Source: a virus (taxonomy: Duplodnaviria; Caudoviricetes). From it: a stretch of DNA of 61,241 nt. Location of the stretch: the IMG/VR virus record IMGVR_UViG_3300028809_000014, positions 1-61,241 of that record; one strand, 5' to 3'. This document shows positions 598-50,547 of this stretch, in pieces (positions within the stretch are counted from its first letter, which is position 1; each line of letters opens with the position of its first letter). The position numbers were made by a program, and so were the translations under genes. The notes beneath the pieces are model-generated. The model did no database searches. It worked only from the letters and a program-made list of their open reading frames with translations, and was not told where the DNA came from.

Positions 598-3132
598 TTA
601 AAACTCGTCGTCAGCGTCGAGGATCTCGTCCTTGCGCTTTTCGTAATACTCCAGCACCTTGTCAGGGTCGAGCACGTCGTTGTCCACGAACAGGGCCGGA
701 TCTTTCGACCAGAGGTACGTGCGCGAGCCGTTGATCGTCATGCGGCCGATCTGCTCGTAGCCTTCACGGTCGAGCATGGTGCCCAGGGCCTTGGCTGAAG
801 GGAACGCCACGTTGATCGCGTCGAAGGCTGCTTCGAGGTGGCCCGTGGCAACCAGCTTGCGCGAGACCAACTCCCAACCGTTGTCGTCGATCACCTCTTC
901 GAGAGTCAGAACGAACGGCGGCTTGGCGCGGCGGATCATCGCGAGCCGGGCCTTGGTGTCCGGGGCGTTGTCCATCGGCTTGAAGTCGTCGGCCTGCTTG
1001 TGATTGATCAGCCAATGACGCAGCGCGCCCGGCGACTCTTCAATGCAACCGTACAACTCGGCGTAGTAGTCCGGGTGCTCGGCCTTGAACTCCTTGAGCC
1101 GCTCGCGGTTCTGCCACTGGCTGAACAGCACGAGGTAGCGTCGGTCGTTGTCGGTGATGGGCAGCGCGTCCTTGAAGTTGGTGAAGAGCAGGTAGCTCGT
1201 CATCGCCTTGATGTTGTGGATCGGTTTGCCCTTGGGGTGGATCTCGACGATGGTGTTGGCAATGAACGGCTTGATCTTGTTGAGCACCTCGTGTTTGTTC
1301 TTGTCGTCCACCAGCCGCACTTCCTCGACGCACGCCAGCACCTGACCTTCGGCCCAGTCGCTGAAGTCCGAGTGGAAGATCTGTGCGTTGAGCATGCGCA
1401 CGTTCGAGATCCCCATGACCATTCGCATCATCTCGGCGAAGAAGGTCTTGCCGTCGCCTTCGACGCCTTGCAGCAGCACGCCGTAGCGCACGTGATCGCC
1501 CGGGTTCTGCACGACCCACGACAGCCAGTCGATCAACATGCGCTGCTCACGCTCATCAGGCAGCAAGTGGGCGATGTGCGCCTTCACGCGGTTGATCGCC
1601 TTGCGGTCACGTGGTGACAACTTCTCAGGCATGGCCGGGATCTCGTTCTCGTGGTAGGTGTTGGCGAACGTGCCGGCCTCGGTGTAGATGATGTCGTCGT
1701 CACCGGGCATGAACCGCAGACCGTTGACCACCGGCACGCGAAAGGTGTTGAGCGCTAGTTCCGATGCCGAGTTCGACGCGGCCTTCTTGCCGTCGAGCAG
1801 ATCCTTCTTCGTGAACGCCTTGCGGTCGTACATCGCGTCGAAGCCTTGCTTGCTGGCTGAGATCTTGCGCTTGAGTGAGAAGAAGCGGTCATTGCTCGTG
1901 TCGTACACCCAGTCGGTACACCACTCGGGGGTCTTGTCGTCAGCACCACCGGAAAATGCAATCGCCTTCTTGATCTCGGACAGCGGGGTCGCGGCGCCAG
2001 TGATCCCATCGAGCGACTTCTTCGCCACCTGGGACAGACGCGAGCGTGTGAGGCTGTCGATCTCGGCTTCGCGCGTGGCTGTGCGGGCCTCTTCCCATTC
2101 CTTTTGGGTCTTCGCGTTCTGGAATCGCTCTTGCAGTTCGACACCCAACTTCAGCGCCGCCGTCTCCATCGCTTCCTTCGCCATCTTCACGATGTAGCGG
2201 GCGGTGATGGGGGCACGCTTCTTGCCACGGATCGCGAACGACTTCCAGCGGCGATCCAGTTCGTCGGCGTCGTAGTTGTCGGCCTCGCTGGCCCACTCGT
2301 TCCACAACTCCAGCCCCTGGTCATCACCGTCGTACTGGTGATAGAGCGCCATGCCGATGTTGATCCACTCATCGTGGTCCTCGGGATGCGGCACCATCAT
2401 CAGGTAGTTGCGCAGTTCATCCTCTTCGATGTCGATGGCGTTGGAGTCTTCGGCCCACGGGTTGTCGTCACCACCGGATGCACCGGCAAGACGCTTACCC
2501 TTGATCTCGCTCCAGCCGCGCTCGCGTGCGAGTTCGTCGAAGTAGTCGAACAACTCTGCGATCTGGCCGGCATCGAGCGTTGGCAGATCCGCCGCGCGCA
2601 CGTTCAACGGGTTCTTCTTGTCAGGCCACGTGTACGGCTTGTTGGTGTCGGGGTGCTTGTGGAAGGCGACGAACTGCTGGCCGTCACCGAGCACCTCGAT
2701 CATCTGGTCTTGACACCACTCGTCCTGATACTTGGTCGAGCGCATCTTGCGGAAGGGCTCATCCGTGCGGAAGACGAAGAGGCGCTTGGGTGCTCGACCG
2801 ATACGCATGGGTGCAGCGCCGAATTTCTTGCGGACCCACGCGTCAACGAGTAGAGCGACCTCTTCATCACGCACGTCGATGTCGATGGCCGGTGTGTTCT
2901 TCGTCAGGACACCGACGCCGGCCCATCGGTGGCCGTCTTTATCAACCCATTCGCGGATCTGTGCCGTGGTTGCTCGTGCCTTTTGCCAGCCGTCGAAGCC
3001 GGGCGCCTTCTTTCCTACCGAGATAGGAACGACGGTGTATCCGTTTTCGATGAGACGTGGACCGTGAAGCGCGAGGTAACCGCCCTTTTGCGACAGAAAT
3101 TCCGCCTCTGTCAGCGGCTTCTTGTCGTTCAT
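598..3132 (-). CDS. Primase-helicase (Prim-Pol AEP + PriCT-2 + P-loop helicase)
   Basis: N-terminal VVPI..GKKAP, AIDID, GQQFVAF; W..IGMAL..W.EW PriCT-2-like segment; Walker A GVEGDGKT, CVEEV Walker B, DRRY. Confidence 0.88.
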   Translation of the reverse strand: MNDKKPLTEAEFLSQKGGYLALHGPRLIENGYTVVPISVGKKAPGFDGWQKARATTAQIREWVDKDGHRWAGVGVLTKNTPAIDIDVRDEEVALLVDAWVRKKFGAAPMRIGRAPKRLFVFRTDEPFRKMRSTKYQDEWCQDQMIEVLGDGQQFVAFHKHPDTNKPYTWPDKKNPLNVRAADLPTLDAGQIAELFDYFDELARERGWSEIKGKRLAGASGGDDNPWAEDSNAIDIEEDELRNYLMMVPHPEDHDEWINIGMALYHQYDGDDQGLELWNEWASEADNYDADELDRRWKSFAIRGKKRAPITARYIVKMAKEAMETAALKLGVELQERFQNAKTQKEWEEARTATREAEIDSLTRSRLSQVAKKSLDGITGAATPLSEIKKAIAFSGGADDKTPEWCTDWVYDTSNDRFFSLKRKISASKQGFDAMYDRKAFTKKDLLDGKKAASNSASELALNTFRVPVVNGLRFMPGDDDIIYTEAGTFANTYHENEIPAMPEKLSPRDRKAINRVKAHIAHLLPDEREQRMLIDWLSWVVQNPGDHVRYGVLLQGVEGDGKTFFAEMMRMVMGISNVRMLNAQIFHSDFSDWAEGQVLACVEEVRLVDDKNKHEVLNKIKPFIANTIVEIHPKGKPIHNIKAMTSYLLFTNFKDALPITDNDRRYLVLFSQWQNRERLKEFKAEHPDYYAELYGCIEESPGALRHWLINHKQADDFKPMDNAPDTKARLAMIRRAKPPFVLTLEEVIDDNGWELVSRKLVATGHLEAAFDAINVAFPSAKALGTMLDREGYEQIGRMTINGSRTYLWSKDPALFVDNDVLDPDKVLEYYEKRKDEILDADDEF

Positions 3133-3425
3133 ACGGTCGGTGTCTTGCTGGTCTTGATTTCGAGGGGGTAGACGAGATGATCTTCAGTGATCAGCGTCGT
3201 GCCGGTGCCGGCGATGATCGTGTGCGCCATGGCGCGAGAGAAACTGCCGTTGCGGATGTGTACGAGAATGGTCACGTTGTTCGTCATCTTGAGAAACTTC
3301 GTGAAGGCCCGGATGCTGGGACGACGGCAGTGGTGAAGCGCGAGAAGATAGATGATGAAGGTGAGGCGGGCGGTGGCTCGCGCCGAGTCGGTCTTCTGAG
3401 ACTCGACCCACTTGGGAAAGTACAT
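3129..3425 (-). CDS. Small putative HTH/Cro-like DNA-binding protein
   Basis: 98-aa ORF coupled to primase start; helical SIRAFTKFL segment; position typical of Chi-like phages. Confidence 0.5.
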   Translation of the reverse strand: MYFPKWVESQKTDSARATARLTFIIYLLALHHCRRPSIRAFTKFLKMTNNVTILVHIRNGSFSRAMAHTIIAGTGTTLITEDHLVYPLEIKTSKTPTV

Positions 3426-3472
3426 AGGGATGCTCCGGTTTGGTCAGGGACGAAAATATTCTACGACAGGGC

Positions 3473-3676: not shown

Positions 3677-4051
3677 ATGACCATCGAAACCAAAATCGAC
3701 GAACTGATCGCAGCACTCGACCGCAACACCGCCGCCCAGGGTGGCAAGACCTCGGCTGGCGCCTCGGGCTCGGCCGGCACGACGAGCACCAAGGAAACCA
3801 CGACCAAGCCGTCCGGCAAGGGCAAGGCCGCCGCCTACGAGGCGCAGCACACCAAGGCTGAGGCCCAGGCGCTCGCCAACAAGGTGAAGGACGAGAAGGG
3901 CGTGGAAGTCATCCGTGGCCTGATCAAGAAGCTGGGCTACGACAAGCTGGCCGACATCGCCAAGGCCGAAGACCTCGACAAGCTGTACGACGCGTGCGAA
4001 GCCGAACTCGGTGAAGACGACGCGGGCGGCAGCGACGACGACGGCATCTAA
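3677..4051 (+). CDS. Conserved phage protein with low-complexity linker and helical C-terminal domain
   Basis: RBS GAGGAA; N-terminal coiled coil, G..V...IKKLG.DKLADI domain; usual neighbour of DUF2800 genes. Confidence 0.7.
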   Translation: MTIETKIDELIAALDRNTAAQGGKTSAGASGSAGTTSTKETTTKPSGKGKAAAYEAQHTKAEAQALANKVKDEKGVEVIRGLIKKLGYDKLADIAKAEDLDKLYDACEAELGEDDAGGSDDDGI

Positions 4052-4068
4052 TCGGCCTGGGACTGAGC

Positions 4069-5448
4069 GTGTCTGAGCATCCAATCAATCTGGTTGATCT
4101 CGCGGCGATTCGTGATGGCACCGGCCACACGATTTTCTCGCCATCGAGTTCGGCCATGTGGTTGACATGCTCAGGCTCGCTAATTCCAAACCTTCTCGCC
4201 CCCGACGACGCGGGCGAGGATGCCGCATACGGCACAGTGGCACACGAGTTGACTGAAGAGCAACTGAAAACAGGTCGTGTACCAGTGGATCGTATCGGTG
4301 AGACGGTCACCGTGAAGAACGGGAAGAACGTTTTCAAGATCCTGATCGATGAGGACATGCTGCGGCACGTGCAAACGGCCGTGGACTATTGCGAGTGGAT
4401 GCCCGGTGATCACTTCACCGAGCGTCGCGTCTTTTTTTCGGAGTACACCCCGCTAAAAAAACAGAGCGGCACGTCGGACTTCGCCAATTGCGAACCCCAC
4501 AAGTTGACGATCACCGATCACAAGTTCGGTCAAGGTGTGAAGGTCCATGCCGCGATGAACTACGACGATCCGCGCTGTGTGATCATCAACGACATCGACG
4601 ACAGCTTCGAGTTGAACGGGAATTCGCAGGGCCTGTTGTACGCCCTGGGTTTTTTCCTTGAGTACGACTGGATGTACGACTTCAAAGAGATCGTGATCCG
4701 CATCTCGCAGCCGCGTTTGGACCACTTCGACGAGTGGCGCACCACCCGAAAACACCTGCTCGCCTTTGCTGAGTTTGTTCGTCGTCGCTCGCACGACGCG
4801 TGGAAGCTCAACGCACCTCGCCGTGCCAGCACCAAGGGCTGCGAGTGGTGCAAGGTGAAGGCTGACTGCCCCACCTGGGCGGTGATGTACGAAGACATGG
4901 TGTCGGCCGCTTTCGACGTGCGTGCCGAGGCTGACATCGAGACGGTCGAGGAACTGAAGTCGCGCCTGGATGATCCGATCGATGGGTACAAGGTGCCGTT
5001 CGCCGATGCGATGAAGCTCACCACCGAGCAACTCGAAACGATCCTCACCTTCCGGCGTGCGTCAGAGAACTGGTTCAAGAAGATCGAGGAAACGTTGAAG
5101 CAACGCGCACGTGAAGGCGTTAAGCTCGGTCAATGGAAGCTGGTCGCGACGAACACACATCGCTTCTTCCGCCCTGGCGCCGTGAAGAAGATCCTCGCGC
5201 TGCCTGTGCCCACTGGCCGCAAGCCCATCACACGCGACGAACTCGTGAAAGAGACCGTTGTGTCGCCCGCAGAGGGTGAGAGAATTTTGGCGACGCACGG
5301 GTTCAAGCCCGCGCAGATCGAAACCCTGTTTGCTGACCTGACGGATCGACCGCCAGGACAGCCAACCCTAGCAAGGTCCAACGACAAGCGGCCCGAGCTA
5401 GGTGATCCGACCGATGGCGTCTTCGATGACGTGTCGGAGGATTTTTAA
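4069..5448 (+). CDS. Cas4-like PD-(D/E)XK exonuclease (DUF2800-like)
   Basis: H..FSPSS...W..C, GTVAHE, GTSD, D.KFGQG, Q..LYALG, CEWC.....CP. Confidence 0.85.
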   Translation: MSEHPINLVDLAAIRDGTGHTIFSPSSSAMWLTCSGSLIPNLLAPDDAGEDAAYGTVAHELTEEQLKTGRVPVDRIGETVTVKNGKNVFKILIDEDMLRHVQTAVDYCEWMPGDHFTERRVFFSEYTPLKKQSGTSDFANCEPHKLTITDHKFGQGVKVHAAMNYDDPRCVIINDIDDSFELNGNSQGLLYALGFFLEYDWMYDFKEIVIRISQPRLDHFDEWRTTRKHLLAFAEFVRRRSHDAWKLNAPRRASTKGCEWCKVKADCPTWAVMYEDMVSAAFDVRAEADIETVEELKSRLDDPIDGYKVPFADAMKLTTEQLETILTFRRASENWFKKIEETLKQRAREGVKLGQWKLVATNTHRFFRPGAVKKILALPVPTGRKPITRDELVKETVVSPAEGERILATHGFKPAQIETLFADLTDRPPGQPTLARSNDKRPELGDPTDGVFDDVSEDF

Positions 5449-5487: not shown

Positions 5488-6150
5488 ATGAGCAAATTGG
5501 AAGTTGTGAAGAAGGTCAAGAATGGTGTGCTGTACCACGACGACAAGGGTGTACCGCACATCCGACTCGACAACGTGCGCATTTCCTACCCCTTCGTCGG
5601 CACGCCCTCGGAAGACGAGAACGATGAGGGCAAGACGCAGAAGAAGTGGCGCATCGTCGCGATGCTGCCCAAGTCGTCGCACAAGGAACTGAAAGACCTC
5701 GTGAAAGAGCAGATCAACTTGCTGATCGCCGACGCGCAGAAGAAGGACTCGAAGGTCAAGGTGCCGATGTCGCACTGGTGCCTCGCCGACGGCGACGAGA
5801 AGGAAGACTCGAACATGGAAGGCCACTTCCTCGTGAGCGCGAGCGACGGCAAGTACCGTCCGAAGGCTCGCGATGCGCGCGGCATCCTGATCGACGACAT
5901 CGACAAGATCGACGAGACGTTCTACGGCGGCTGCTGGGGCAACGTGATGATCCGCCTCTGGTACTTCAACGGCACCTCGAAGAACAACCCGAAGAAGGCC
6001 CTCGCCAAGCGTATCGTGGCCGGCTTCGTGGGTGTGCAGTTCGTTCGCAATGACGAGCCCTTCGGTTCGGGCAAGGTGGACGACGAAGACGCCTGGGATT
6101 CGGTCGAAGGCGAAGGCGGCGGCGACGGCGAAGACGACGGCGAAATCTGA
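5488..6150 (+). CDS. Single-stranded DNA-binding protein (DUF2815/gp2.5-like)
   Basis: NVRISYP, L.DGD, FYGGCW, VQFVRNDEPFG, acidic C-terminal tail. Confidence 0.85.
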   Translation: MSKLEVVKKVKNGVLYHDDKGVPHIRLDNVRISYPFVGTPSEDENDEGKTQKKWRIVAMLPKSSHKELKDLVKEQINLLIADAQKKDSKVKVPMSHWCLADGDEKEDSNMEGHFLVSASDGKYRPKARDARGILIDDIDKIDETFYGGCWGNVMIRLWYFNGTSKNNPKKALAKRIVAGFVGVQFVRNDEPFGSGKVDDEDAWDSVEGEGGGDGEDDGEI

Positions 6151-6209: not shown

Positions 6210-6401
6210 ATGAAGCAAAGCAAAGTCAGTAAGGTCGGCGCGAAGGTCACTGTGACCCGTCGCAATGGCGAGAAGGTCAACGGCAAGGTCGTGAGCGTCG
6301 AAGACCGCCGCAATGGCCGCTGGGTCACGGTGAACGTCGCCGAACCCCGCAAGCCTGCTGTGCACGCCGTCGTGCGTGAATCGCAACTGACCGCGTTTTA
6401 A
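6210..6401 (+). CDS. Small basic beta-rich (SH3/KOW-like) hypothetical protein
   Basis: RBS AAGGA; KVGAKVTV...NGKVVSV pattern. Confidence 0.6.
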   Translation: MKQSKVSKVGAKVTVTRRNGEKVNGKVVSVEDRRNGRWVTVNVAEPRKPAVHAVVRESQLTAF

Positions 6402-6460: not shown

Positions 6461-8593
6461 ATGGCATTTGTGAAAGCGCGCTCGGGAACGAAGTTCGGCG
6501 AAGAGCGCCCCACGGCAGTATCCGATACGGAGTGTCTGCCAAACTACTGGTCGATCTTCTTCAAGGATCTCGCAACCGGCCGCGTGGCAAAGATCCGCAA
6601 GATGAACGACGAGCCGCTCAACAAGCGGCAGATCGCCGCGATCATGAAGCGCTATCGCGTGGTCATGTTCAACTCGCGTCACTACGACGAACAGATGCTT
6701 GCCTACGCGATGCACGGGGCCAGCAATCGCGAGTTGAAGATCGCCAGCGACATGATCATTCAAGACGGCATGAAGCCCTGGCAGTTCTACGACTACTTCA
6801 AGTGCGACCGTCTGCCGCGCTTCGTGGACTTGATCGACTTGACCGAGGTGTCGCCAGGATCTCCAGGCAAGCCCAGCTTGAAACTGTCGGCCGCGCGCTT
6901 GCACGCTCGCAAGATCATGGAGATGCCGATCCCCCACGATCAGCCGATCACACCTGACAACATCAACATCCTCTACGAGTACGAGGACAACGACCTTGAG
7001 TTGACCGAGAACGTCTGGAACGAGTTGGCGCCGCAGATCCGCCTTCGGGCCTTGATGTCCGACGAACACAACGTCGATCTGCGTAGCAAGTCCGACGCAC
7101 AGATGGCCGAGGCTGTGCTGATTGCCGAGCTTGAGCGCATCACCGGCTCGAAGGTCAACAAGCCCGAGGTGCGCGCGAAGAAGTTCCGCTACAAGGTTCC
7201 CTCGTACATCAAGTTCAAGACGCCCGCCATGCAGGAATTGATCGCCAAGCTGGCGGTCTCTGACTTCCGCATCGATCACAGCGGCAAGGTCATCGAGCCT
7301 GACTTCCTGAAGAAGATGCCGCTGCCCCTTGGCGATGCGGTCTACACCATGGGTATCGGTGGTCTGCACTCCACCGAGAAAGCGCAGTGGTTCACGCACG
7401 ACCTTGAATGGCTGCTGCTTGATCGCGACGTGACCAGCTATTACCCGTCGATCATCCTGCTGCTGAAGCTGTTCCCTGAGCACCTGGGCCTTAACTTCCT
7501 CAAGGTTCTGCGCAAGCTCTACAACCGCCGCGTGCACGCTAAGAAGATGGCGGCCGAGTGCGCAAAGAACGGCGACAAGGAAGGCGCGCGCAAGTGGGGC
7601 GACATCGCCGAGACGCTGAAGATCGTGTTGAACGGTTTGTTCGGCAAGTTCGGCTCTCCCTACTCCTTGCTCTACGCGCCCGAGTTGATGATTCAGACCA
7701 CCATCACCGGACAACTGTCGGTGCTGATGCTGATCGAAGAACTCGTCGAGCGGGCCTTTGGCGTTGTGTCGGCGAATACCGACGGCTTTGTGACCCGCGT
7801 GCAGGCCTCGCGCCGCGACGAGTTCAACGCACTCATCATGGAGTGGGAGTGGGACACAGGTTTGAGCACGGACGAAACCGAGTACCAGTGGCTGTACTCG
7901 GCGAACGTCAACAACTACATCGCGCTCGACAAGAAGGACGGCAAGGTGAAACGCAAGGGTAAGTCTGCGACGCCTGCCGGTCCAGGTCAAAAGGGCGCAT
8001 CCGGCCTGAAGAAAAACCCGTGGGTCGAGGTGTGCATCGATGCCGTGGTTGCCTACCTCAAAGACGGCACGCCCATCGAAGACACGATCAACTATTGCGA
8101 GGACATTCGCAAGTTCGTCGGCGTCACGCGCGTCACAGGCAAGGGCGTCGTCGCGATGAAGGACGGTGAAGAAATCGGCCGTGCGATCCGGTTCTACTTC
8201 TCGACCGACACCAACACCGCGATCACCCGCAGCGACACGAACGCGCGCATCCCCAGCACGCAAGGCGCCATGCCGTTGATGGAGTTCCCGAAGGAGTTCA
8301 GCGGGGCCGACGACATCCCGGATGACATCGACTACGACTGGTACATCCGCGAGGCATACGCGGTGCTTGAGGGTTATGGCGTGCCCGTGCTCGATCCGAA
8401 GTTCAAGGGCCGCTCTGGCATCTTCACCGGCCTCATGGACGGAACGAAGACCTATCACACAGTCAACCTGCCGACCTGCGTGGCTGTGTGTGGCAAGAAG
8501 CCCAAGTCGATGCGCGAAACATGGTTGGAGATTGCAAAGCCGAATCGTGAGTTCCGCTACTGCGTCAAGTGCGTGAAGGGGAGCGACATATGA
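6461..8593 (+). CDS. DNA polymerase, family B, with 3'-5' exonuclease domain
   Basis: ExoI DTEC, ExoII FN..HYD, ExoIII Y..ND; motif A DVTSYYPS, motif B KIVLNGLFGK, motif C SANTDG. Confidence 0.92.
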   Translation: MAFVKARSGTKFGEERPTAVSDTECLPNYWSIFFKDLATGRVAKIRKMNDEPLNKRQIAAIMKRYRVVMFNSRHYDEQMLAYAMHGASNRELKIASDMIIQDGMKPWQFYDYFKCDRLPRFVDLIDLTEVSPGSPGKPSLKLSAARLHARKIMEMPIPHDQPITPDNINILYEYEDNDLELTENVWNELAPQIRLRALMSDEHNVDLRSKSDAQMAEAVLIAELERITGSKVNKPEVRAKKFRYKVPSYIKFKTPAMQELIAKLAVSDFRIDHSGKVIEPDFLKKMPLPLGDAVYTMGIGGLHSTEKAQWFTHDLEWLLLDRDVTSYYPSIILLLKLFPEHLGLNFLKVLRKLYNRRVHAKKMAAECAKNGDKEGARKWGDIAETLKIVLNGLFGKFGSPYSLLYAPELMIQTTITGQLSVLMLIEELVERAFGVVSANTDGFVTRVQASRRDEFNALIMEWEWDTGLSTDETEYQWLYSANVNNYIALDKKDGKVKRKGKSATPAGPGQKGASGLKKNPWVEVCIDAVVAYLKDGTPIEDTINYCEDIRKFVGVTRVTGKGVVAMKDGEEIGRAIRFYFSTDTNTAITRSDTNARIPSTQGAMPLMEFPKEFSGADDIPDDIDYDWYIREAYAVLEGYGVPVLDPKFKGRSGIFTGLMDGTKTYHTVNLPTCVAVCGKKPKSMRETWLEIAKPNREFRYCVKCVKGSDI

Positions 8594-8910
8594 GCGCGAA
8601 ACTCTTCTACGAGAAGACGATCAAGGAGATCGACAACATCGAGCAGCCTGCGCAGCGCTGGATGCGTGCTCGCGGTTGGATCTTCGAGAAGGTCGTCAGT
8701 CTGTCGCGCAACGGCTGGCCTGATCGTTGTGCGATCAAGTACGGACTTGTCATTTGGGTCGAGTTGAAGGCACCAAAGAAGACGCCGAAGCAACATCAAC
8801 TCGACATTCATGCGGCGATTCGTGCAAATGGCGGCACGGTCGTATGGTTCGACAACCTCGACGCCTTCAAGGCGTACTTCAGGACTATCGATGAGCAAAA
8901 CGCTTTCTAA
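8590..8910 (+). CDS. VRR-NUC domain nuclease
   Basis: GWPDR...VELKAP...Q; ATGA overlap with polymerase stop. Confidence 0.85.
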   Translation: MSAKLFYEKTIKEIDNIEQPAQRWMRARGWIFEKVVSLSRNGWPDRCAIKYGLVIWVELKAPKKTPKQHQLDIHAAIRANGGTVVWFDNLDAFKAYFRTIDEQNAF

Positions 8911-10531
8911 AGAGATCCGGCGTCAACTCGCTGGCGTCAAGCTCAGTAGAGATGAGATGCACGAAGAGCAGGAACTGATGCTCGACTTCCTGCACAAGAC
9001 GCCCTATGCGGCCTTGTTCGCCGAGATGGGCGTTGGCAAGACCATCACTGCGTTGACCCTGGCCGTGGACCTGCTGAATTGCTTTGAGGTCAAGCGCGTG
9101 TTGATCATTGGTCCGTTGAAGGTGGCGTGCGACACGTGGCCGAAAGAGATCGCCATGTGGGACCACACGGCGCCCTTCCGCTTCACGCTTCTGCGTGAGG
9201 ACGACGACGATCCGCGTCTTGCCAAGGCTCGTGCTCGCGCGCGGGCGTTCGGCATGACCGAGGGGTTGAGTCGTGAAGACACCGACCGTATGACGGCTCG
9301 CGCCGAGACGCAAGAGCGCGAACGCATCCGCAAGGATCTTGCCAACACGAAAACGCAGATCCACGTCATCAACCGCGAAGCCGTTACGTGGCTGGTCAAT
9401 CACCATCAGGGCAAATGGCCCTATGACTTGGTGATCATCGACGAGTCGAGCAGCTTCAAGGATCACGCGGCCGACCGCTTCAAGGCTCTGGCGAAGGTGC
9501 GCAAGTACCCGCACCTTATGAAGCGTGTGATCGAGTTGACGGCGACGCCCACGGCCGAGGGTTACATGGGCCTGTGGGCGCAGATGTTCTTGCTGGATCG
9601 CGGCGAACGCCTCGGCAAGAACATCACGGCCTATCGCAAGAGCTACTTCAGCTTCAACCGGTGGTCAAAGCAGTTCGAGATCCGTCCGGGGGCCGAAGAG
9701 AAGATTCTGAAGAAGATCGCGGACATCACCATGATCGTGCGCGCGCGCGACTACGGCAAAGAGCACGTGCCCAAGGTCATCGACCGCAAGTTGACCTTGA
9801 GTCAGCGTGTGATGGGGCAATACGCGACCTTGCAAGACGAATTCGTGTTGCAACTGCCGGATGGCGAGTCGGTATCGGCAGACACGGCCGTGGCGTTGTC
9901 GTCGAAGCTGCTGCAACTTGCCTCGGGCTTTGTCTACGACACCAAGTTGTTGATGGACTGGGACACGGAAGACATCAAGCTCGTCAAGAAGGTGCATCAC
10001 ATTCATGACGAGAAGGTCGCGATGCTCAAGGAAATGGTCGAGGCGTTGCAGGGCAAGCCCGTGCTCATCGCTTACCACTTCAAGCCGTCGCTCGTGCGCT
10101 TGCTCAAGGCGTTCCCTGGCGCCGTGGTCATGGACCCCAAAGGGAAGTGCATCACCAAATGGAACAAGGGGAAGATCCCGATCCTGCTCGTGCACCCGCA
10201 GTCGGCGGGCCACGGGCTCAACCTTCAGCACGGTGGGCACAACATCATCATGTACGACATGCCCTGGTCGCTGGAGAACTACAAGCAGTTGATCGGACGC
10301 CTTGCGCGTCAAGGCCAGAAGTTCGAGGTGATCGTGCAGCGGTTGATCTGCGAAGGCACCATGGATGAAGTAGTCGCCAAGAGCCTGGACAAGAAGGACG
10401 CAACGCAAGAGGACATGTTCCGCATGCTGCGTGCGTACATCAAGGCTCGCCGCAAGATGATGGCGTTGGTGGGCCAGCCGCTGACCAAGCTCGATGTCGA
10501 GATGGACCTCGCCCTGGCTGACGAATTTTGA
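8891..10531 (+). CDS. SNF2-family (SF2) helicase
   Basis: EMGVGKT, DESS, LTATP, SAGHGLNLQ, Q..GRLARQGQ; RBS AGGA before ATG 8891. Confidence 0.9.
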   Translation: MSKTLSKEIRRQLAGVKLSRDEMHEEQELMLDFLHKTPYAALFAEMGVGKTITALTLAVDLLNCFEVKRVLIIGPLKVACDTWPKEIAMWDHTAPFRFTLLREDDDDPRLAKARARARAFGMTEGLSREDTDRMTARAETQERERIRKDLANTKTQIHVINREAVTWLVNHHQGKWPYDLVIIDESSSFKDHAADRFKALAKVRKYPHLMKRVIELTATPTAEGYMGLWAQMFLLDRGERLGKNITAYRKSYFSFNRWSKQFEIRPGAEEKILKKIADITMIVRARDYGKEHVPKVIDRKLTLSQRVMGQYATLQDEFVLQLPDGESVSADTAVALSSKLLQLASGFVYDTKLLMDWDTEDIKLVKKVHHIHDEKVAMLKEMVEALQGKPVLIAYHFKPSLVRLLKAFPGAVVMDPKGKCITKWNKGKIPILLVHPQSAGHGLNLQHGGHNIIMYDMPWSLENYKQLIGRLARQGQKFEVIVQRLICEGTMDEVVAKSLDKKDATQEDMFRMLRAYIKARRKMMALVGQPLTKLDVEMDLALADEF

Positions 10532-10575
10532 GCCGTGCTAGTATGTGTGCGTCGTGAATATTCACGGTGCACATA

Positions 10576-10811
10576 TGCGACAAGCCAAACCATCCAGCAA
10601 TAAGCAACTGCTTGAGTTCGAGCGGCGTACAGCCTTGGGGCCAACGTATGCCGCTCGTTTGCTTTGCGTCGCGTATGTCACATACGCTCAGTACCGCAAC
10701 GGCAGTCGGGTTCTCCCTCCATACTGCGAGGGCCACATGCGGCACCTCCTTCGCATCCCCGACAAACTCCTGCGCACGATCATCGAAGAGGAACTCTATG
10801 GCAACCGGTAA
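10576..10811 (+). CDS. Small HTH protein upstream of terminase
   Basis: LGPTYAARLLCVAYVTYAQYRNG HTH-like pattern; start uncertain. Confidence 0.6.
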
Positions 10812-11415
10812 GCTGAACAACTCGCGCTCGCTCGACCCCGTGAGTCGCGCCATGCTCTATGAGGGCGTGACGCAAGGGCAGATGTGCATTCTGTTCCGCA
10901 TCGATCAGCGTAACCTCGCACGCAAGATCCACCGATGCCAGCCCGTGGGTGAACGCTCGGGCACGCCGATTTACGACTTGGCTGAGTGTGCGGCCTACCT
11001 CATCAAGCCGGCCTACGACATCGAGGCGTACATCAAGCGGATGCACTCGAACGAGTTGCCAAAGCACCTGAGCAAAGAATACTGGGCAGGCAAGCGTTCA
11101 CAGCAGGAGTACGAACTGAAGGCCGGCGACCTGTGGCCGACCGCCAAGGTGCTGGAGAAAGTCGGCGAACTCTTCAAGCTGGTCCGCATGTCGGCACTGC
11201 TCACCGTGGACAACATCGAGCGCAACAACGAACTGACCGACAAGCAGCGCGCCTTGATGAGCAGCCTGATGTACGCGATGCTCGACGAACTGCGCAAGTC
11301 CATTCAGAAGGAGTTCGCCGGCCCTGACGAAAAGCCTGTCGAACTGGATCTGAGTACGCAGATGCCCGATGAATCTGAAGAGGATGACGGTGATGAAGAA
11401 GAAGCCGAGTTCTAA
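10798..11415 (+). CDS. terS: Terminase small subunit (DUF1441-like)
   Basis: Winged-HTH-like N-terminus (PIYDLAE), KEYW..K.....Y...AGDLW; RBS GAGGA; directly upstream of TerL. Confidence 0.8.
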   Translation: MATGKLNNSRSLDPVSRAMLYEGVTQGQMCILFRIDQRNLARKIHRCQPVGERSGTPIYDLAECAAYLIKPAYDIEAYIKRMHSNELPKHLSKEYWAGKRSQQEYELKAGDLWPTAKVLEKVGELFKLVRMSALLTVDNIERNNELTDKQRALMSSLMYAMLDELRKSIQKEFAGPDEKPVELDLSTQMPDESEEDDGDEEEAEF

Positions 11416-13506: not shown

Positions 13507-13761
13507 ATGGCCTGCACTCCCGAAAAATGCGCGAAGCTCGAAGCCGATTTGGCTGACGCTCTGGCCGCTCTTCACAAGATCAACACGGGCGGTTCGGCCC
13601 GTGTTGTCGTTGATCAGAACGGTGAGCGTGTCGAGTTCACTGCTGTGAATCTCAACGGCTTGCGCAGCTACATCAACTCGTTGAATGCGCAACTTGTGGC
13701 GTGCGGTTGCCCCGGGCACTCGCTACCCACGCCCAGCGGCCCGGCGATGTTCATCTTCTGA
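13507..13761 (+). CDS. Head-tail joining protein (gpW-like)
   Basis: ALHKINTGG....VDQNGERVEFT..N...LRSYI; between TerL and portal. Confidence 0.8.
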   Translation: MACTPEKCAKLEADLADALAALHKINTGGSARVVVDQNGERVEFTAVNLNGLRSYINSLNAQLVACGCPGHSLPTPSGPAMFIF

Positions 13762-18372: not shown

Positions 18373-18624
18373 ATGTCCAAGACCCAATCGACCGGCGCCT
18401 CCACTCGCACCGTCAGCCGCGTCCCCCGCTGCACCGTCGTCATCGTGCGTGACGGCAAGCAAGTCGTGCCCGAAGTCGGCAAGGCTTTCGACTTCACGGC
18501 CCAGGAAGTGGCCGACATCGAGAAGTCCTCGGTCAAGGCGCTGTATCCCACCGAAGGCGCGAGCGCGGGTTCGCTGACCTCCGTGGACGACGGCCGCTCG
18601 GTCTCGACCGACAGCGAGATCTAA
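18373..18624 (+). CDS. Hypothetical protein (post-capsid position)
   Basis: RBS AAGGAG; synteny with lambda FI position. Confidence 0.7.
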   Translation: MSKTQSTGASTRTVSRVPRCTVVIVRDGKQVVPEVGKAFDFTAQEVADIEKSSVKALYPTEGASAGSLTSVDDGRSVSTDSEI

Positions 18625-44053: not shown

Positions 44054-44284
44054 TCAGAACGAGTCGTCGTCGGCCGGAAGCTCTTCTTCCAGGGCTTCGG
44101 CGATCAGGTTGAGCGCGGCGGCCAGGGCGCGGGCGATGGCGGGCACGTCGGACTCCAGCCAGAAGACGCCGTTGCGCTTGCCATCGGGGCGCGCGGCAGG
44201 GCTGAAGCCCATCTCCTTGATCCGGTCAACGCTCAGTTCGACCTCCAGCTTCTTGCAGAGGTCCGTGGTGGAAATAGCGGCCAT
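44054..44284 (-). CDS. Small acidic-tailed hypothetical protein
   Basis: RBS AAGG and ATG 44284; ends DDDSF. Confidence 0.6.
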   Translation of the reverse strand: MAAISTTDLCKKLEVELSVDRIKEMGFSPAARPDGKRNGVFWLESDVPAIARALAAALNLIAEALEEELPADDDSF

Positions 44285-44318
44285 GGTTGTTTTGCCTTTC
44301 AGTAGCGGGGTTGGTTGA

Positions 44319-44936
44319 TCAGAGGTCGTCGCTTGTGGGGCCGGGGTCGTTCCATTCGATGCCGGGGTTGGCACCTTTGGTACGCCAGCCGTGTTTGCCT
44401 TCGGAGCCGAACGGATCTGCGCCGGGGTTGTCGGCGTAACGGTCGGTCGAGCCGAAGCCGCCCGTGCCGCGTGCGGTCGTGCCGAGTTCATCGACGACCT
44501 CGAACTGCACGCGGGGAATCGGGATGATCATGGCCTGGGCAATGCGGTCGCCGGGCTTGACGGTGAAGTGTTTAGCGTTCGTGTCGGCCGTCAGCTTGAC
44601 CATGATCTCACCACGATAGTCAGAGTCGATGATGCCGACGCAGTTGGCGAGCCGCACGTCGCTCTTGAAGCCGTGGCCGCTGCGCGAGAAGATCTGCATG
44701 ACCCAGCCGGGCGGGATCTCAACAGCGAGGCCAGTGCGGAAAACGCCAACATCGTCAGCCCACATGGAGCTTTGTGCCCAGGTGTTGTCTTCGTCCCAGT
44801 CTGCCGGCGCAACGGCGTGCAGGTCAAAGCATGCGGCCTGGAGCGACTGGTAATCGGGCACGATGGCCGCCTCGTGGAGCTTCTTCAGCTTGACGACGAG
44901 CGGGTCAGCCATGCAGGTGCGAAAGGTATTGGTCAT
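44319..44936 (-). CDS. dut: dUTPase (trimeric)
   Basis: AACFDL, RSG, GIIDSDYRGE, GDRIAQ, RGTGGFGST; C-terminal extension. Confidence 0.9.
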   Translation of the reverse strand: MTNTFRTCMADPLVVKLKKLHEAAIVPDYQSLQAACFDLHAVAPADWDEDNTWAQSSMWADDVGVFRTGLAVEIPPGWVMQIFSRSGHGFKSDVRLANCVGIIDSDYRGEIMVKLTADTNAKHFTVKPGDRIAQAMIIPIPRVQFEVVDELGTTARGTGGFGSTDRYADNPGADPFGSEGKHGWRTKGANPGIEWNDPGPTSDDL

Positions 44937-45331
44937 GGTGCGACTTTCAGGTTGATGTCGGGAACGATTGCGGCGGGCTTGAACACGACCACGTAGTGAT
45001 ACGTGCCAACCTTGGCCGGTTCGAGTTGTTCGATGAAGTACGTCACGTTGTCGGACAGCCCGAGGAAGTGCTTCTTGTACGCGCCAGGGCCGACCTTGCA
45101 AGTGATCGAGACCTTTTTCGGGCTGTCGTCATTGCCTCGACTGCAAAGCCCTTCGATGCTGAGCATGTAGTCACCCGTGATGCCGTTGTAAAAGACGACG
45201 CGGCGATTGATCTCGAAGTTGTCGGCGGCTTGTGAGAGGTTGCGCGAGGCAACGTCGGCGTCGGAAGAACAGGCGCCAAGGCCGATGGCGGCAAGGAGTG
45301 TGATGAGGGTTGTCTTTATCATGATGCTCAC
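44933..45331 (-). CDS. Conserved phage lipoprotein
   Basis: Lipobox LGAC; ADVASRNLS.AADNFEINRRVVFYNGITG. Confidence 0.75.
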   Translation of the reverse strand: MSIMIKTTLITLLAAIGLGACSSDADVASRNLSQAADNFEINRRVVFYNGITGDYMLSIEGLCSRGNDDSPKKVSITCKVGPGAYKKHFLGLSDNVTYFIEQLEPAKVGTYHYVVVFKPAAIVPDINLKVAP

Positions 45332-46805: not shown

Positions 46806-47414
46806 TCAGAAGTCGTCATCGCTAGGCCCCTTTACGCTCTTCTTCAGATTCATGAAGCACGACGCAATGGCTCGGGCCTGCCACTTTGCATCGTCGAGCG
46901 CGTGATGGGCCACGGCCTTCGGATCGTTGATGCTGCCGTCACGGTGGGGGTCATAGCCGATCAAGTAGTCAGCCACGTCAACCACGGTGCGCATGTCGCG
47001 GATCGAACGGAAGTGCCATGGCTCCTTCAACCCCACCGTACCCGTGTCGTAGGCGTGCTCCAGCCACGTGATGTCGGCCGTAGCGCCGTTGCCCCACGGC
47101 TGTACCTGGCCGGGCAGCGCGCGACCCCAGGAGGTGAACTGCTGCAACGCGGTTGCGAGTGCGAGTTTCAGGCGGCCGGTGTCCTGAAAGAGTTGGCGCG
47201 CCTCGGCGTTCTGCCGCATCCACCATGCCACGGTCTCGCCGTCCACGCGCGCGTTCTTGCAGGCGCTCGCGAACTCGATCTCTTCGTAGTAGGTCTGACC
47301 CAGCTTGCCGCTGCGTCGGTCGAACGCTACGGCGCCGATGGCGATCACTGGTGCGTCCCAGCGCTTGCCCAGGCTTTCGCAGTCAACGGCCACGTCGATG
47401 TATGGGCTCTTCAT
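46806..47414 (-). CDS. DEDDh 3'-5' exonuclease (Rv2179c/DUF5051-like)
   Basis: VDCESLG, IAIGAV.F, TVAWW..Q, WGNG...D, RDMRT, HHALDDA..QA. Confidence 0.82.
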   Translation of the reverse strand: MKSPYIDVAVDCESLGKRWDAPVIAIGAVAFDRRSGKLGQTYYEEIEFASACKNARVDGETVAWWMRQNAEARQLFQDTGRLKLALATALQQFTSWGRALPGQVQPWGNGATADITWLEHAYDTGTVGLKEPWHFRSIRDMRTVVDVADYLIGYDPHRDGSINDPKAVAHHALDDAKWQARAIASCFMNLKKSVKGPSDDDF

Positions 47415-47872: not shown

Positions 47873-48173
47873 GCTCCTTGTCGGTGTAACGCCAGCGGAA
47901 GTAATGCTCGGTGCCGTAGCTCTCGGACCAGCAGGTCAGCGTGCCGTAGGCCGCCTTGATGATCACGCGACCCTCGAACAACGCCTGCCCGGTGAAGTCG
48001 TCGTTGTCGCAGATCTCGATCTTGATACCGGCCTTGGCGAGCAACTCCTTGAAACGCAACGCGAGCACAGACGGCAGATCGCGCAGCGGGTGGTAGAAGT
48101 CGTGAAGCTGCATGGCTGACATGCGGATCGTGATCTTGTGCGAGCCTTCAGAATTCGTCATCAGCAGCGACAT
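47844..48173 (-). CDS. Hypothetical protein
   Basis: RBS AAGGGAG and ATG 48173; L..AGI motif. Confidence 0.55.
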   Translation of the reverse strand: MSLLMTNSEGSHKITIRMSAMQLHDFYHPLRDLPSVLALRFKELLAKAGIKIEICDNDDFTGQALFEGRVIIKAAYGTLTCWSESYGTEHYFRWRYTDKEREQYERNNA

Positions 48174-48498
48174 GCTTGGCTCCCTTCTGCGCGTAGGCGA
48201 TCCACGAGTAGGTCTTCCCCTGGCCGCGCCGCGCCTCGTGCATCGGCCCATATGCGACAGGCTGACCCTTCTTGTCGTGCGTGCCGTGGGAGTACCACTT
48301 CCACACGTAGATGTCGCCGTCGATGTCGTCAACGGTTTGCATGGTCATGAGCCCCGTCTTGACGCTGCGCAACAGCAGCACACCGTGAATCGGAATGCCG
48401 GCCTCACGCAGTGCGTTCATGACGTGAACGTTGTGCCCGATGTCGTTGGTGATCGTGCGCAACGCGTCTGCGTCATAACGCACTTCGATGATCTGCAT
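48148..48498 (-). CDS. Hypothetical protein
   Basis: RBS AAGGA; LREAGIP; ends DDEF. Confidence 0.6.
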   Translation of the reverse strand: MQIIEVRYDADALRTITNDIGHNVHVMNALREAGIPIHGVLLLRSVKTGLMTMQTVDDIDGDIYVWKWYSHGTHDKKGQPVAYGPMHEARRGQGKTYSWIAYAQKGAKHVAADDEF

Positions 48499-48507
48499 AG
48501 ATGGTCC

Positions 48508-48819
48508 TTAAAAATCGTTGTCGTAAGGCCCTTCGAGACGCCACACGCGCACACCGGGGCTCTCGTGTGAAGGGTCGTCGTAGGTATGGCGAAAGCACAC
48601 GCCCAGGCCGGCGCGCAGGAACGGCTTGCGCAGGAACTCGACATCAGCCAGTTGCGCGTCAGGCACGAAGAAGGAGTCGCGGCCAGGGATGAACCGCTTG
48701 AACTTCTCCACCAGATGCTGCACCGCAGGGTCAGGCGGCCGGCCGGTGCGCGGCTTGTAGGCCGGGTCCGTGATGAGCACGGTGTGCTCGGCCAGTAGCT
48801 TGATGTCGGACTTGCGCAT
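48508..48819 (-). CDS. Putative DNA-binding protein
   Basis: GRP hook, PG.DSFFVP...GVRVWRL; ends DNDF. Confidence 0.6.
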   Translation of the reverse strand: MRKSDIKLLAEHTVLITDPAYKPRTGRPPDPAVQHLVEKFKRFIPGRDSFFVPDAQLADVEFLRKPFLRAGLGVCFRHTYDDPSHESPGVRVWRLEGPYDNDF

Positions 48820-48820
48820 C

Positions 48821-49063
48821 TCAGACGTGGCGAAGCGTCTTGACGCGTTGCACGGCGTTCTTCGAGATCACGCCGGCCGCCTGCGCGCGGGCCAGTTCCT
48901 CGGGCGGCATCGCATGCACAGGGTATCGGCTGTGCCATGCGTTCTTCGCCATGTAGAGCAGGTCAGCGTGCACGCGCTGGGGAAACTTCTCACGAAGCTC
49001 GTTGTAGATCTTCGTGAGGCCGGGGCGACGCTCTTCAGCGTACTCAAGACGCGACTTGCTCAT
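48821..49063 (-). CDS. Hypothetical protein
   Basis: MSKSRLEY... ORF filling gap; start uncertain. Confidence 0.5.
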   Translation of the reverse strand: MSKSRLEYAEERRPGLTKIYNELREKFPQRVHADLLYMAKNAWHSRYPVHAMPPEELARAQAAGVISKNAVQRVKTLRHV

Positions 49064-49065
49064 GG

Positions 49066-49554
49066 TCAGATCGCGTTGTCCGGGTGTTCGGCCAGGAGCG
49101 CGGCCCAGGGCTTGGGCGGCCACTTGGCGGCACCATGGTTGGCGCTGGCCGACTCGGGCGTCTGGAACTGCGGACCCCAGTTGTGGCCGTCCCAGTGGCT
49201 GAAGCCGATGGTGACCATGCCGTCGAGCGCTTCGCTGTCGATCACGGCGTCGTCCTGCTCGGTCACGTAGACGCCCACGCGCGCGGGCGGCACTTCCTTC
49301 GGGTAGAAGACGGAGATCTGGAGGATCTCGCCCGTGGGCATCACGACTTCGCCGCCGATGGGCACCTCGAACATCTTGACCGTCGGCTTGGGCGTCTTCG
49401 AGATGGTCGGGTTTTCGTTGCGCAGGAAGGCGTCGGTGTCGATCACCAGGGCCTGCGTTTCGCCGACGGCAGGCGGGCTGAGTTCACCCACGGGTACGTC
49501 CTTGGGCGGAATGTGCCCTTCGATCTTCGGTTCCTTGCGGAGTTCGTTGTTCAT
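49066..49554 (-). CDS. Hypothetical protein
   Basis: P.RVGVY...GFSHWDG..W domain. Confidence 0.6.
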   Translation of the reverse strand: MNNELRKEPKIEGHIPPKDVPVGELSPPAVGETQALVIDTDAFLRNENPTISKTPKPTVKMFEVPIGGEVVMPTGEILQISVFYPKEVPPARVGVYVTEQDDAVIDSEALDGMVTIGFSHWDGHNWGPQFQTPESASANHGAAKWPPKPWAALLAEHPDNAI

Positions 49555-50547
49555 TTAAAAATCCTCGTCGTTGGTGGTGGAATCGGACTCGTCGGCCGGG
49601 CCGGCAAGTTCCGCGCTGATCGCGGTCACGAGACGACGATAGGTCGTTGCCGTGAGCCACGCGATGGAAAAGAACGCGGTGTCTTTGTCTTCACCACGCT
49701 CTTCGTTGTTGCCTTCGTTCGTCGTGCCGATGGTGCAGCCACGGAAGCACAGCTTGTCGTCGAAGCGGAAGGACATGAGCGGATCGACTTCGCCTTCCTC
49801 GATCCAGTCCATGCCAAGCTCGTGCACGTCGTAGTCGGCCTTCAGCAGGGCCTGGATCTCGTGGGCGCCGATGTCGCGGTCCTTGACGCTCACAACGCGC
49901 TTCTCGGGGCCTTTGAACTTGCCCTCGCTACGCGGATAGAACACCGCTTCGCCGTGCGTGTCGCGGGCCACGCCGTTGAGGTAGCTCACGACGCTCTTCT
50001 CGAACGACAGCGGGCTCGGCGTGAAGTCGTAGAAGGTATTGAAGAAGTTGAACACGATGTCGCAAACCGACTGCGCCTTCTTACCGGCCGCGCAGAAGAC
50101 GAACATCTGCGACTCGGGCGTGATCATCACGTAAACCATCTGTTCACGGATGAACGCCTTGGGGAGCATCTCGAACTCCACCTCGTCACGGGTTTGCGCC
50201 CATTCCTTTTTGCTGCCAGGGCGGCCGGTGAGATCTGCCAACGCGGCCATGCGCACCTTGACCTCTGCATCGCGCACCTTGGCCGGTAGGATGCGTTCGT
50301 TGATCTTGATGCCCAGCAGCACAGCGGCGCCGTTCAGGTCGAGCATGTAGCGGTCGTCGCCGTCGATCTCGGCAAAGCCCAGGCGCGAGTACGAGCCGCC
50401 CGAGGGCTCCATCGCTTCGACCTGCTGCGTTTCGATGTCGTCATTCAGGTTCAGCAGGCCGGCCATCAGATCGTTGCCGGTGAGGTGCTTGGCGCCGTCG
50501 TTGACCGTGAGGTTGTAGACGACAAAATTCTTGAAAGGGTTGCTCAT
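49555..50547 (-). CDS. rdgC: Recombination-associated protein RdgC
   Basis: FKNFVVYNL, RLGF, ERILPAKV, EV.FEMLPKAF, V.ELG..W; RBS AGGAG. Confidence 0.8.
   Translation of the reverse strand: MSNPFKNFVVYNLTVNDGAKHLTGNDLMAGLLNLNDDIETQQVEAMEPSGGSYSRLGFAEIDGDDRYMLDLNGAAVLLGIKINERILPAKVRDAEVKVRMAALADLTGRPGSKKEWAQTRDEVEFEMLPKAFIREQMVYVMITPESQMFVFCAAGKKAQSVCDIVFNFFNTFYDFTPSPLSFEKSVVSYLNGVARDTHGEAVFYPRSEGKFKGPEKRVVSVKDRDIGAHEIQALLKADYDVHELGMDWIEEGEVDPLMSFRFDDKLCFRGCTIGTTNEGNNEERGEDKDTAFFSIAWLTATTYRRLVTAISAELAGPADESDSTTNDEDF

Follow-up and report, generated by a model that had tools for sequence, protein, structure and literature searches.

A shared acidic C-terminal tag with a genome-specific last residue on DNA-handling proteins of Chi/Enc34-like phages

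[quoted passage not shown] In T7, the tail of gp2.5 is described as lying on a basic patch of the polymerase (PMC12339929); the helicase is a further contact of this tail, and stimulation of gp6, with which it probably makes contact as well, depends on it (PMC4124056). Mutations in the T7 polymerase are reported to suppress the loss of the terminal Phe of gp2.5 (a study cited in PMC12339929). The tip of bacterial SSB, an acidic run followed by a terminal Phe with a free carboxylate, docks enzymes of DNA metabolism (in part after PMC3936761). Related tails have been described in small terminase subunits (TerS), being disordered and acidic in PaP3 and necessary in P22 for binding of the large subunit (TerL) and DNA (PMC7672466), and in the SSB of phage Enc34, in whose crystals the tail occupies the beta-sheet groove of a neighbouring molecule (PMC5686142). 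In this work we describe a tag of this kind on 13 proteins of one phage, the IMG/VR record IMGVR_UViG_3300028809_000014, which was analysed over its whole length of 61,241 bases (the window; rated 100% complete, approximately 60% G+C) and which is, judging from its gene content, a complete Chi/Enc34-like siphophage of the Casjensviridae. Among the main texts of the open literature we found no description of a tag carried by a dozen proteins of one phage, or of a last residue specific to the genome, and passages of the Enc34 work discuss the SSB tail only (PMC5686142).

Window genes were called with our own codon-usage scorer followed by curation, yielding 80 genes, and all genome counts given here rest on this caller; two window open reading frames (ORFs), 8569-8910 and 13507-13761, lie outside the list, and their inclusion would give 13/82 tagged. 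A protein was counted as tagged when its last residue was one of FLIMVWY and the preceding four held at least two D/E and no K/R/H, a rule set before other genomes were counted, and the expectation was obtained by applying the same rule to every internal pentamer of the proteins in question. A previous interpretation made without database searches (the sequence-only reading) had quoted 14 such C-termini, all of which were recovered at the genes named; 13 satisfy the rule, while the polymerase (KGSDI) does not. Tagged genes thus number 13/80 against 1.41 expected (P=1.7e-9), and Phe-terminated tags 9 against 0.17 (P=1.8e-13), with a terminal Phe of any kind found in 11/80 window genes compared to 67/1608 control proteins. 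The tag is unevenly distributed, being present on six of the nine genes of the replication module and TerS, on 6/32 of the leftward operon, on 1/26 virion and lysis genes and on none of the 13 rightward small genes, as expected from the claim that core virion proteins and the rightward cluster lack it. Function calls (Pfam on 50 window proteins, PHROGs on 20) agree with the names previously given to the primase-helicase, DUF2800 nuclease, SSB, SNF2 helicase, TerS, exonuclease, RdgC and dUTPase; for the protein named PolB the assignment rests on phrog_1252 ('DNA polymerase') and on weak matches to family B polymerases of solved structure (E 0.002-0.03).

The frequency of the tag in other phages, a comparison that the sequence-only reading had proposed, places the family well above the controls. 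Two of 38 called T7 proteins are tagged, exactly gp2.5 (DEDGDF) and gp4 (NDTDF), together with 1/51 in lambda, 1/77 in D3, 3/53 in Xp10, and 29/929 and 4/460 unique proteins of D3-like and lambda-like loci, respectively (together 33/1389). Over the twelve family genomes considered below the count is 104/812, compared with 40/1608 in controls (odds ratio 5.8, P 1.5e-22), and for the window on its own the odds ratio is 7.6 (P 4e-7). In distant phages sharing only the polymerase, after removal of three family loci, 12/397 proteins are tagged, five of which carry canonical bacterial-type (D/E)IPF ends. Canonical bacterial SSB ends (DDDIPF, DDIPF, EEIPF) were also observed on single proteins of loci L144, L012, L015, L016, L027 and L028, with L144 combining DDDIPF and five Val-type tags, so that both kinds of tail occur in one phage. 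In the D3-like loci L172, L176, L206 and L220, the TerS directly upstream of TerL ends in KDEFEDF or NPFDEF, and a 117-residue ORF a few genes upstream of TerS in D3-like loci ends in GWAVEEF; by their sequence, these ends look like such tagging on a small scale, restricted to the packaging region.

The tag had been presented as a peculiarity of one phage; it is instead a trait of the phage family, conserved on orthologues in nine related genomes, and it is in its Phe ending alone that the window lineage stands apart. The twelve genomes compared (the window, Chi, Enc34, JS26, SS2019XI, Salvo, BcepNazgul and five designated G001-G005) have 16 protein families in common, of which the universal non-virion members are the primase-helicase, DUF2800, SSB, SNF2 and TerL. 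The records of the named relatives are classed as Casjensviridae, and the window portal DNA is 72-74% identical to that of Chi-like Salmonella phages and of Stenotrophomonas/Xanthomonas phages. Tagged proteins make up 10/74 of those called in G001, 12/71 in G002, 6/61 in G003, 7/71 in G004, 7/51 in G005, 10/69 in SS2019XI, 11/79 in JS26, 12/66 in Chi and 12/72 in Enc34, each representing six to nine times the internal-pentamer expectation. All 12 tagged ORFs of Chi are annotated coding sequences (gp1, 2, 4, 6, 7, 11, 18, 42, 52, 55, 58 and 62), including a helix-turn-helix (HTH) protein (gp1), the primase (gp2), TerS (gp11), a NinC-like protein (gp42), a methylase-domain protein (gp52) and an 'exonuclease' (gp58). 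The orthologous groups that recur among tagged proteins are the primase-helicase, ORF124, DUF2800, SSB, TerS, DUF7443, RdgC, the ORF116 family and, where present, the B-type polymerase. The primase-helicase and SSB each satisfy the rule in nine of the twelve genomes, with the untagged ends mostly still L. Lineage-specific newcomers are also tagged, namely the window dUTPase, Chi gp52 and gp42, and the B-type polymerase. At 72 further loci around primase homologues, which were not de-duplicated and some of which are parts of records already counted, 268/1209 called genes are tagged.

By the same rule Salvo (2/62) and BcepNazgul (2/56) show no enrichment; 11/56 BcepNazgul proteins end in Leu, often as Gly-Leu. 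The BcepNazgul homologue of ORF124 (53305-53829, minus strand) carries, in place of the acidic tail of all its relatives, a run of Arg and then a long end unrelated to theirs, as expected if a frameshift had occurred in a run of Asp codons, be it of the record or of the phage itself. The basal Salvo-like lineages have little tagged besides SSB; its tail appears to be the ancestral one, with the remaining tagged proteins resembling later imitators.

Across the 100 tagged tails of ten genomes, the fraction of D/E is 0.85, 0.83, 0.75, 0.52 and 0.44 at positions -2 to -6 and 0.25-0.31 at -7 to -12, compared with 0.10-0.16 for untagged ends. The tails are located outside folded domains: Pfam profiles leave the last 15-41 residues of RdgC, the exonuclease, DUF2800 and dUTPase uncovered, and ORF124 homologues align as a conserved helical domain followed by a low-complexity linker and, in nine of ten members, a tagged end. 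An alignment of RdgC with solved RdgC structures ends short of either C-terminus. The window SSB (PF10991, E 4e-20; PDB 5odj, the Enc34 protein, E 1.2e-25 over residues 3-210) yields an AlphaFold2 model with an OB-type core of pLDDT >90 and a tail of 70/65/56. In four window tails a Pro stands six or seven residues before the end (GPSDDDF, GPYDNDF and GPTSDDL, which begin with Gly-Pro, and LPADDDSF), and longer shared forms occur as DPLNDD...L in G001 and as DPAxxL in G003-G005 and BcepNazgul. The last codon varies synonymously (GTT/GTG/GTC/GTA for Val; CTG/CTT/CTC/CTA/TTG for Leu; TTT/TTC for Phe), and therefore selection acts on the protein.

Two further observations were made at the level of DNA. 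In the window the terminal Phe codon is TTT in 6/11 cases, compared with 17% among the 685 Phe codons at internal positions (P 0.005), and the stop codon is TAA in 7/13 tagged genes versus 23/80 overall; recent CTT-to-TTT changes may have left this trace, or the context of the stop codon may be responsible. In G001, three non-homologous genes (7207-8250, 11972-12283 and 17886-18197) share 14 identical bases, GACCCGCTCAACGA, with 20 identical between two of them, which encode DPLNDD before their acidic ends and suggest that tail cassettes can be copied between genes.

The last residue of the tag is characteristic of the genome. Leu closes 10/10 tags in G001, 11/12 in G002, 5/6 in G003, 7/7 in G004, 7/7 in G005, 9/10 in SS2019XI and 11/11 in JS26, Val closes 10/12 in Chi and 9/12 in Enc34, and Phe closes 9/13 in the window. 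Measured against the share of the same residue among internal matches (0.12-0.31), each genome departs from expectation (P 9e-3 to 1e-7). Fifty-one of the 72 further loci have at least three tags, and in 40 of these at least 75% of the tags end in one residue (L in 29, V in 9, I in 1 and M in 1), the other 11 being mixed. On a tree of the primase-helicase, Val marks one clade, Ile and Met fall in its sister group, and the window is located deep within a Leu clade. For seven of the nine Phe-tagged window proteins the G001 or G002 orthologue ends in an acidic run plus Leu; nine non-homologous proteins therefore switched from Leu to Phe in one lineage. Phe is kept in the closest relatives, in the SNF2 protein of locus L002 (EEVDF) and in an RdgC homologue of 63% identity (P0002, EDEEDF).

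On this evidence we consider it somewhat probable (roughly 55%) that the tails form a motif for docking, recognised in trans by a pocket that is shared, co-evolves with them and is probably encoded by the phage. The motif would consist of a flexible stretch after the last folded domain, approximately three to six Asp/Glu, and one hydrophobic residue bearing the free C-terminal carboxylate, and would be carried by most proteins acting on phage DNA, from replication, recombination/repair and nucleotide supply to the initiation of packaging, with virion proteins excluded. These clients would be gathered on replicating and packaging DNA by one pocket or a few, shared between them, located on a phage-encoded protein and combining a small hydrophobic hole and a basic rim, and the preference of the pocket would have drifted by lineage (Leu ancestral; Val, Ile and Met elsewhere; Phe here) with all client tails following. 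A shared reader is favoured because the last residue is uniform over unrelated folds within a genome and different between genomes, which tails acting in cis do not predict. A reader encoded by the phage is favoured, given that Val (Salmonella phage Chi and Hafnia phage Enc34) and Leu (Serratia phage JS26) both occur among phages of enterobacterial hosts.

As to which protein holds the pocket, our guess would be the single-stranded DNA groove of the T7-type SSB in first place, followed by the primase-helicase and, for packaging clients, TerL. SSB is ranked first because its tail appears ancestral, because its fold family accepts a neighbour's tail in crystals, and because it sits where most clients work. 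TerL may be a second reader, as suggested by the P22 TerS tail, a TerL- and DNA-binding element, together with the [DE][DE]F ends in the packaging region of D3-like loci. The tagged genomes encode polymerases of two unrelated types, of which the B-type carries the tag itself; the polymerase therefore behaves as a client and is unlikely to be a universal reader. The B-like type (phrog_1252) is found in the window, G001-G005 and JS26, and a different polymerase of approximately 690-720 residues with the conserved end FY(R/M)KD in Chi (6906-8945, recorded as 'DNA polymerase I'), SS2019XI and BcepNazgul. Salvo encodes at the polymerase position an untagged protein of approximately 680 residues ending in ECYQK. 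The window's polymerase type was not found in Salvo or Enc34, although a DNA polymerase is listed for the latter (PMC5686142).

Searches for the reader have so far identified none. Presence in tagged genomes combined with absence from the nearly tagless Salvo selects ORF124, DUF7443, DUF7609 (53841-54512), a spanin and two tail proteins, none of which resembles a binder of peptides, and ORF124 and DUF7443 carry the tag themselves. The one pair submitted to complex prediction, SSB residues 1-196 and the C-terminal 45 residues of DUF2800, scored 0.21 where the mark is 0.32, and in the AlphaFold2 model of the whole SSB the confidence does not rise at the last residues; neither result speaks for or against a docked tail. 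Of the interpretations in the sequence-only reading, the docking code is the best supported here, having gained conservation, protein-level selection and a concerted last residue, while the single hub that it postulated was not identified.

Several observations weigh against a shared reader in trans. No PDZ, TPR, SH3 or clamp-like domain was recognised by Pfam on 50 or PHROGs on 20 window proteins, nor, by Pfam, a domain of any other kind known to bind C-termini, and a scan of SSB, DUF2800, primase, SNF2 and polymerase for residues tracking the Phe tails gave none above the null (the polymerase has 11 such columns, and a null from every other lineage reaches up to 10, with 7 for L109 and 6 for L111). 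The swapping of the polymerase type within the family, with the tags staying in place, removes the answer given by T7 as a universal one. The clients include TerS, a head-module protein and the HTH and methylase-domain proteins of Chi, which are hard to fit to one replisome hub. The last residue is also not strictly uniform, given that in the window Ile closes SSB, ORF124, polymerase and DUF7443, and Leu closes dUTPase, that L099, L101 and L114 have Met on SSB and Leu elsewhere, and that L109 and L111 combine Phe on the primase and on TerS with Leu on SSB, DUF2800 and SNF2; such mixtures would be consistent with more than one reader or with a loose one. In addition, our gene caller missed some genes, both in T7 (38 called) and in the window (the two ORFs mentioned above). 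Finally, the tail of Enc34 SSB is reported to alter the DNA selectivity of SSB itself, a cis effect (PMC5686142).

This last result leads to the best of the competing explanations, which we regard as possible but doubtful: that each tail acts in cis as an acidic mimic of DNA, folding onto the DNA-binding surface of its own protein with the hydrophobic end in place of a base, and thereby sharpens specificity or keeps the protein both soluble and off host DNA. Nearly all clients bind DNA or nucleotides, several are neutral to basic once the last 15 residues are discounted (net charge +22 for SNF2, +8 for TerS and +6 for dUTPase), and Enc34 SSB deprived of its tail binds double-stranded besides single-stranded DNA (PMC5686142). 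However, several other clients are strongly acidic even without their tails (primase-helicase -18, RdgC -15, DUF2800 -9), and a dozen unrelated folds would hardly need one last residue in one genome and another in the next.

It is unlikely that the tails address a host reader, mimicking the tip of host SSB or another host signal so as to borrow or block the host's repair and replication partners. The acidic run with terminal Phe does resemble the bacterial SSB tip, client types overlap the partners known for bacterial SSB (exonuclease, helicase, primase, polymerase), and canonical DDDIPF/DDIPF ends were found on single proteins at several of the fetched loci. Against this, no window tail has Ile-Pro before its Phe, most relatives end in Leu or Val, the last residue differs among phages of related enterobacterial hosts, and the Val-type locus L144 has its DDDIPF end on a separate protein. 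Competition for host SSB partners, as proposed in the sequence-only reading, fits poorly with the absence of I-P-F and with a last residue that changes by phage lineage (Val, Leu, Ile, Met or Phe).

We judge it quite improbable that the tails do no more than raise solubility or protect from degradation, a role that any acidic end could fill, with the last residue a frozen accident spread by the copying of tail-coding DNA. The bases for DPLNDD shared by three non-homologous G001 genes suggest that such copying can occur, but elsewhere the same residues are encoded by different codons among the tails of one genome, and Phe replaced Leu on nine window genes within a Leu clade, a switch for which copying of a single cassette fails because the nine tails differ in sequence. 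The previously suggested shielding from C-terminal proteolysis likewise leaves the genome-specific last residue unexplained. The remaining explanation, that the tails are by-products of nucleotide signals at gene ends such as another DNA motif or the ribosome-binding site of the next gene, which acidic codons resemble, has a negligible probability: in two or three window genes the tail codons could form a weak ribosome-binding site (e.g. GAG GAT TTT TAA ATG at 49555), and untagged window genes with ATGA overlaps have ends rich in G/E, but a gap of 9-59 bases, an overlap of 26-47 bases or the lack of a following gene on the same strand characterises most tagged window genes, the commonest ending in Chi (GAA GTT, with gaps of -11 to +384) is unlike a ribosome-binding site, and last-residue codons vary synonymously. 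Overlap with ribosome-binding sites as the cause of the tails was ruled out by this codon variety and by gene spacing, the distance from a tagged gene to the next start ranging from -59 to +1040.

Beyond docking in trans, the tag could constitute a private address code, by which one phage reader assembles a dozen DNA-handling proteins and lineages, having repeatedly changed the last-residue 'password', become isolated from one another; as a whole we hold this extension to be tentative and rather unlikely. If true, proteins of related phages in the same cell, or host or satellite proteins copying the tag, would be barred from assembly, providing a molecular isolation between phages and a set of natural, mutually orthogonal docking tags, and incoming genes would gain function by acquiring the local tail, sometimes through cassette copying. 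Natural variants of the tag may be mutually orthogonal, and the concerted change of the last residue on at least nine proteins would offer an unusually clean example in nature of motif-reader co-evolution. A single reader, if one exists, would be a key to the organisation of replication, recombination and packaging in the little-studied Chi/Enc34 family. As an aid to annotation, the tag allows the window genes at 3677-4051, 44054-44491, 48148-48498, 48508-48819 and 18373-18624 to be assigned to DNA transactions.

The tagged proteins, the polymerase and one borderline case are listed in Table 1. Eleven of the 12 family genomes encode a DUF7443 protein, all members ending in L, V or I and eight of the 11 satisfying the rule; the window gene lies directly after the major capsid gene, a position that we take to be that of lambda FI, the likeness being one of gene order alone. 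The SNF2 tag is present in some relatives only, and dUTPase has no orthologue in the 11 other family genomes. No Pfam or PHROG family matched the ORF at 44054-44491, and a sequence search gave no solved-structure relative for the Rv2179c-like exonuclease. Searching viral contigs for relatives with RdgC as the query returned 19 pattern matches and no confirmed one.

Table 1. Tagged and borderline proteins of the window, with the C-terminal ends of their orthologues or homologues (aa, amino acids)
Protein	Position	Strand	Identified by	C-terminal end	Ends of orthologues or homologues
Primase-helicase (Prim-Pol, PriCT-2, DUF5906)	598..3132	-	Pfam	ILDADDEF	acidic + L; acidic + V in Chi, Enc34
ORF124, 124 aa, phrog_7721, no known function	3677..4051	+	PHROGs	GGSDDDGI	
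DUF2800 (PD-(D/E)XK-like) nuclease	4069..5448	+	Pfam; full profile match up to residue 442 of 459	DGVFDDVSEDF	
T7-type single-stranded DNA-binding protein, Enc34/DUF2815 family	5488..6150	+	Pfam, PDB	GGGDGEDDGEI	
DNA polymerase, weakly family B-like	6461..8593	+	phrog_1252	CVKCVKGSDI (weak tag, fails the rule)	DEDDL, DDGEDI, KEDSL, RESEL, VEYEL
SNF2-family helicase	8810..10531	+	Pfam	DLALADEF	PEEVDF (L002, closest relative)
Small terminase subunit TerS, phrog_141	10567..11415	+	PHROGs	EEDDGDEEEAEF (ends EEAEF)	DDDEL, YDDEEL, DDDEV
DUF7443 protein, 83 aa	18373..18624	+	Pfam	STDSEI	
Small ORF, no known function, 76-145 aa by start	44054..44284/44491	-		LPADDDSF	DDDDDDESL (G001)
dUTPase with 41-residue extension	44319..45101	-	Pfam; domain ends at residue 219 of 260	GPTSDDL	
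Rv2179c-like 3'-5' exonuclease	46806..47414	-	Pfam; profile ends at residue 186 of 202	KGPSDDDF	
ORF116, 116 aa, phrog_31589, no known function	48148..48498	-	PHROGs	VAADDEF	DEDESL, VDEEL, DPASDL, DPAAGL
103-aa protein, no known function	48508..48819	-		EGPYDNDF	EGPYDEL (G002)
RdgC-family protein	49555..50547	-	Pfam; match ends at residue 315 of 330, profile position 296 of 298	GPADESDSTTNDEDF (ends NDEDF)	EDEEDF, DDGEI, QYDEL, DDEEL, DDDEV
108-aa protein, borderline, uncounted	52187..52513	-	phrog_24457	PFPKKEF (Glu-Phe after basic residues)	

Further hydrophobic ends were observed in the window. In the replication module, a basic ORF of 63 residues (6210-6401, plus strand, net charge +9, no Pfam or PHROG match) ends in QLTAF and one of 113 residues (8569-8910, plus strand, no Pfam match) in IDEQNAF, both lacking an acidic run. 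TerL (11369-13492, plus strand) ends in GKALA, and its orthologues in 11/12 genomes end in L/M/T-A (ALA, NMA, SLA, AMA, LTA, ILA), with KSLG in Salvo; this conserved hydrophobic end may serve for docking on its own account, e.g. to the portal. An 84-residue ORF (13507-13761, plus strand) lies between TerL and the portal gene, whose start it overlaps, and was for that reason dropped by the caller; it ends in PAMFIF, and a 74-residue family in eight related genomes ends in Phe-x-Phe (AQFLF, FNFVF and MRFVF among others). The position of this ORF is that of lambda W. In the tail region, an ORF of 691 residues (34891-36966, plus strand) has a codon-usage score of 17-20, very low beside its neighbours (approximately 166 for the preceding gene of 526 residues), and may be a recently acquired host-recognition gene.

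Among known systems, tails confined to packaging proteins, as in PaP3, P22 and D3-like phages, differ in that TerS of the window family shares the genome-specific last residue of the replication proteins. Sliding-clamp tails (beta-clamp motifs and the gp45-binding peptides of T4/RB69) are similar in serving many clients of one reader, often from a C-terminal position with a hydrophobic end, but clamp motifs are mainly hydrophobic, of the type Gln-Leu-x-Leu-Phe, whereas here an acidic run is joined to one residue; a Pfam scan of 50 window proteins recognised no clamp gene. As an analogy of principle, the eukaryotic ends EEY/F-COOH (read by CAP-Gly) and EEVD-COOH (read by TPR) likewise combine acidic residues and a free terminal carboxylate on several unrelated proteins, although these belong to another kingdom and neither domain was found by Pfam on 50 window proteins. 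With respect to bacterial SSB, the Ile-Pro-Phe core is present in no window tail, the window SSB is of the Enc34/T7 type, and the arrangement is inverted, given that in bacteria one tail serves pockets on many partners while here 13 partner-type proteins carry the tails. Also close is the system of T7, where, as in the window, a disordered acidic tail with a hydrophobic end is found on both the SSB and the primase-helicase of the same phage (here DDGEI and DADDEF), with the window SSB belonging to the T7-type fold family. It differs in that T7 has two tagged proteins and the window 13, including nucleases, RdgC, dUTPase, TerS and a head-module protein; in that the T7 reader is a family A polymerase, while the polymerase type varies in this family and the B-type is tagged itself; and in that the T7 tails end in Phe, while here Phe closes nine window tails, the window SSB ends in Ile, and related phages use Leu, Val, Ile or Met by lineage. 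With the tag described here, a principle that T7 applies to two proteins becomes a proteome-wide rule embracing a dozen.

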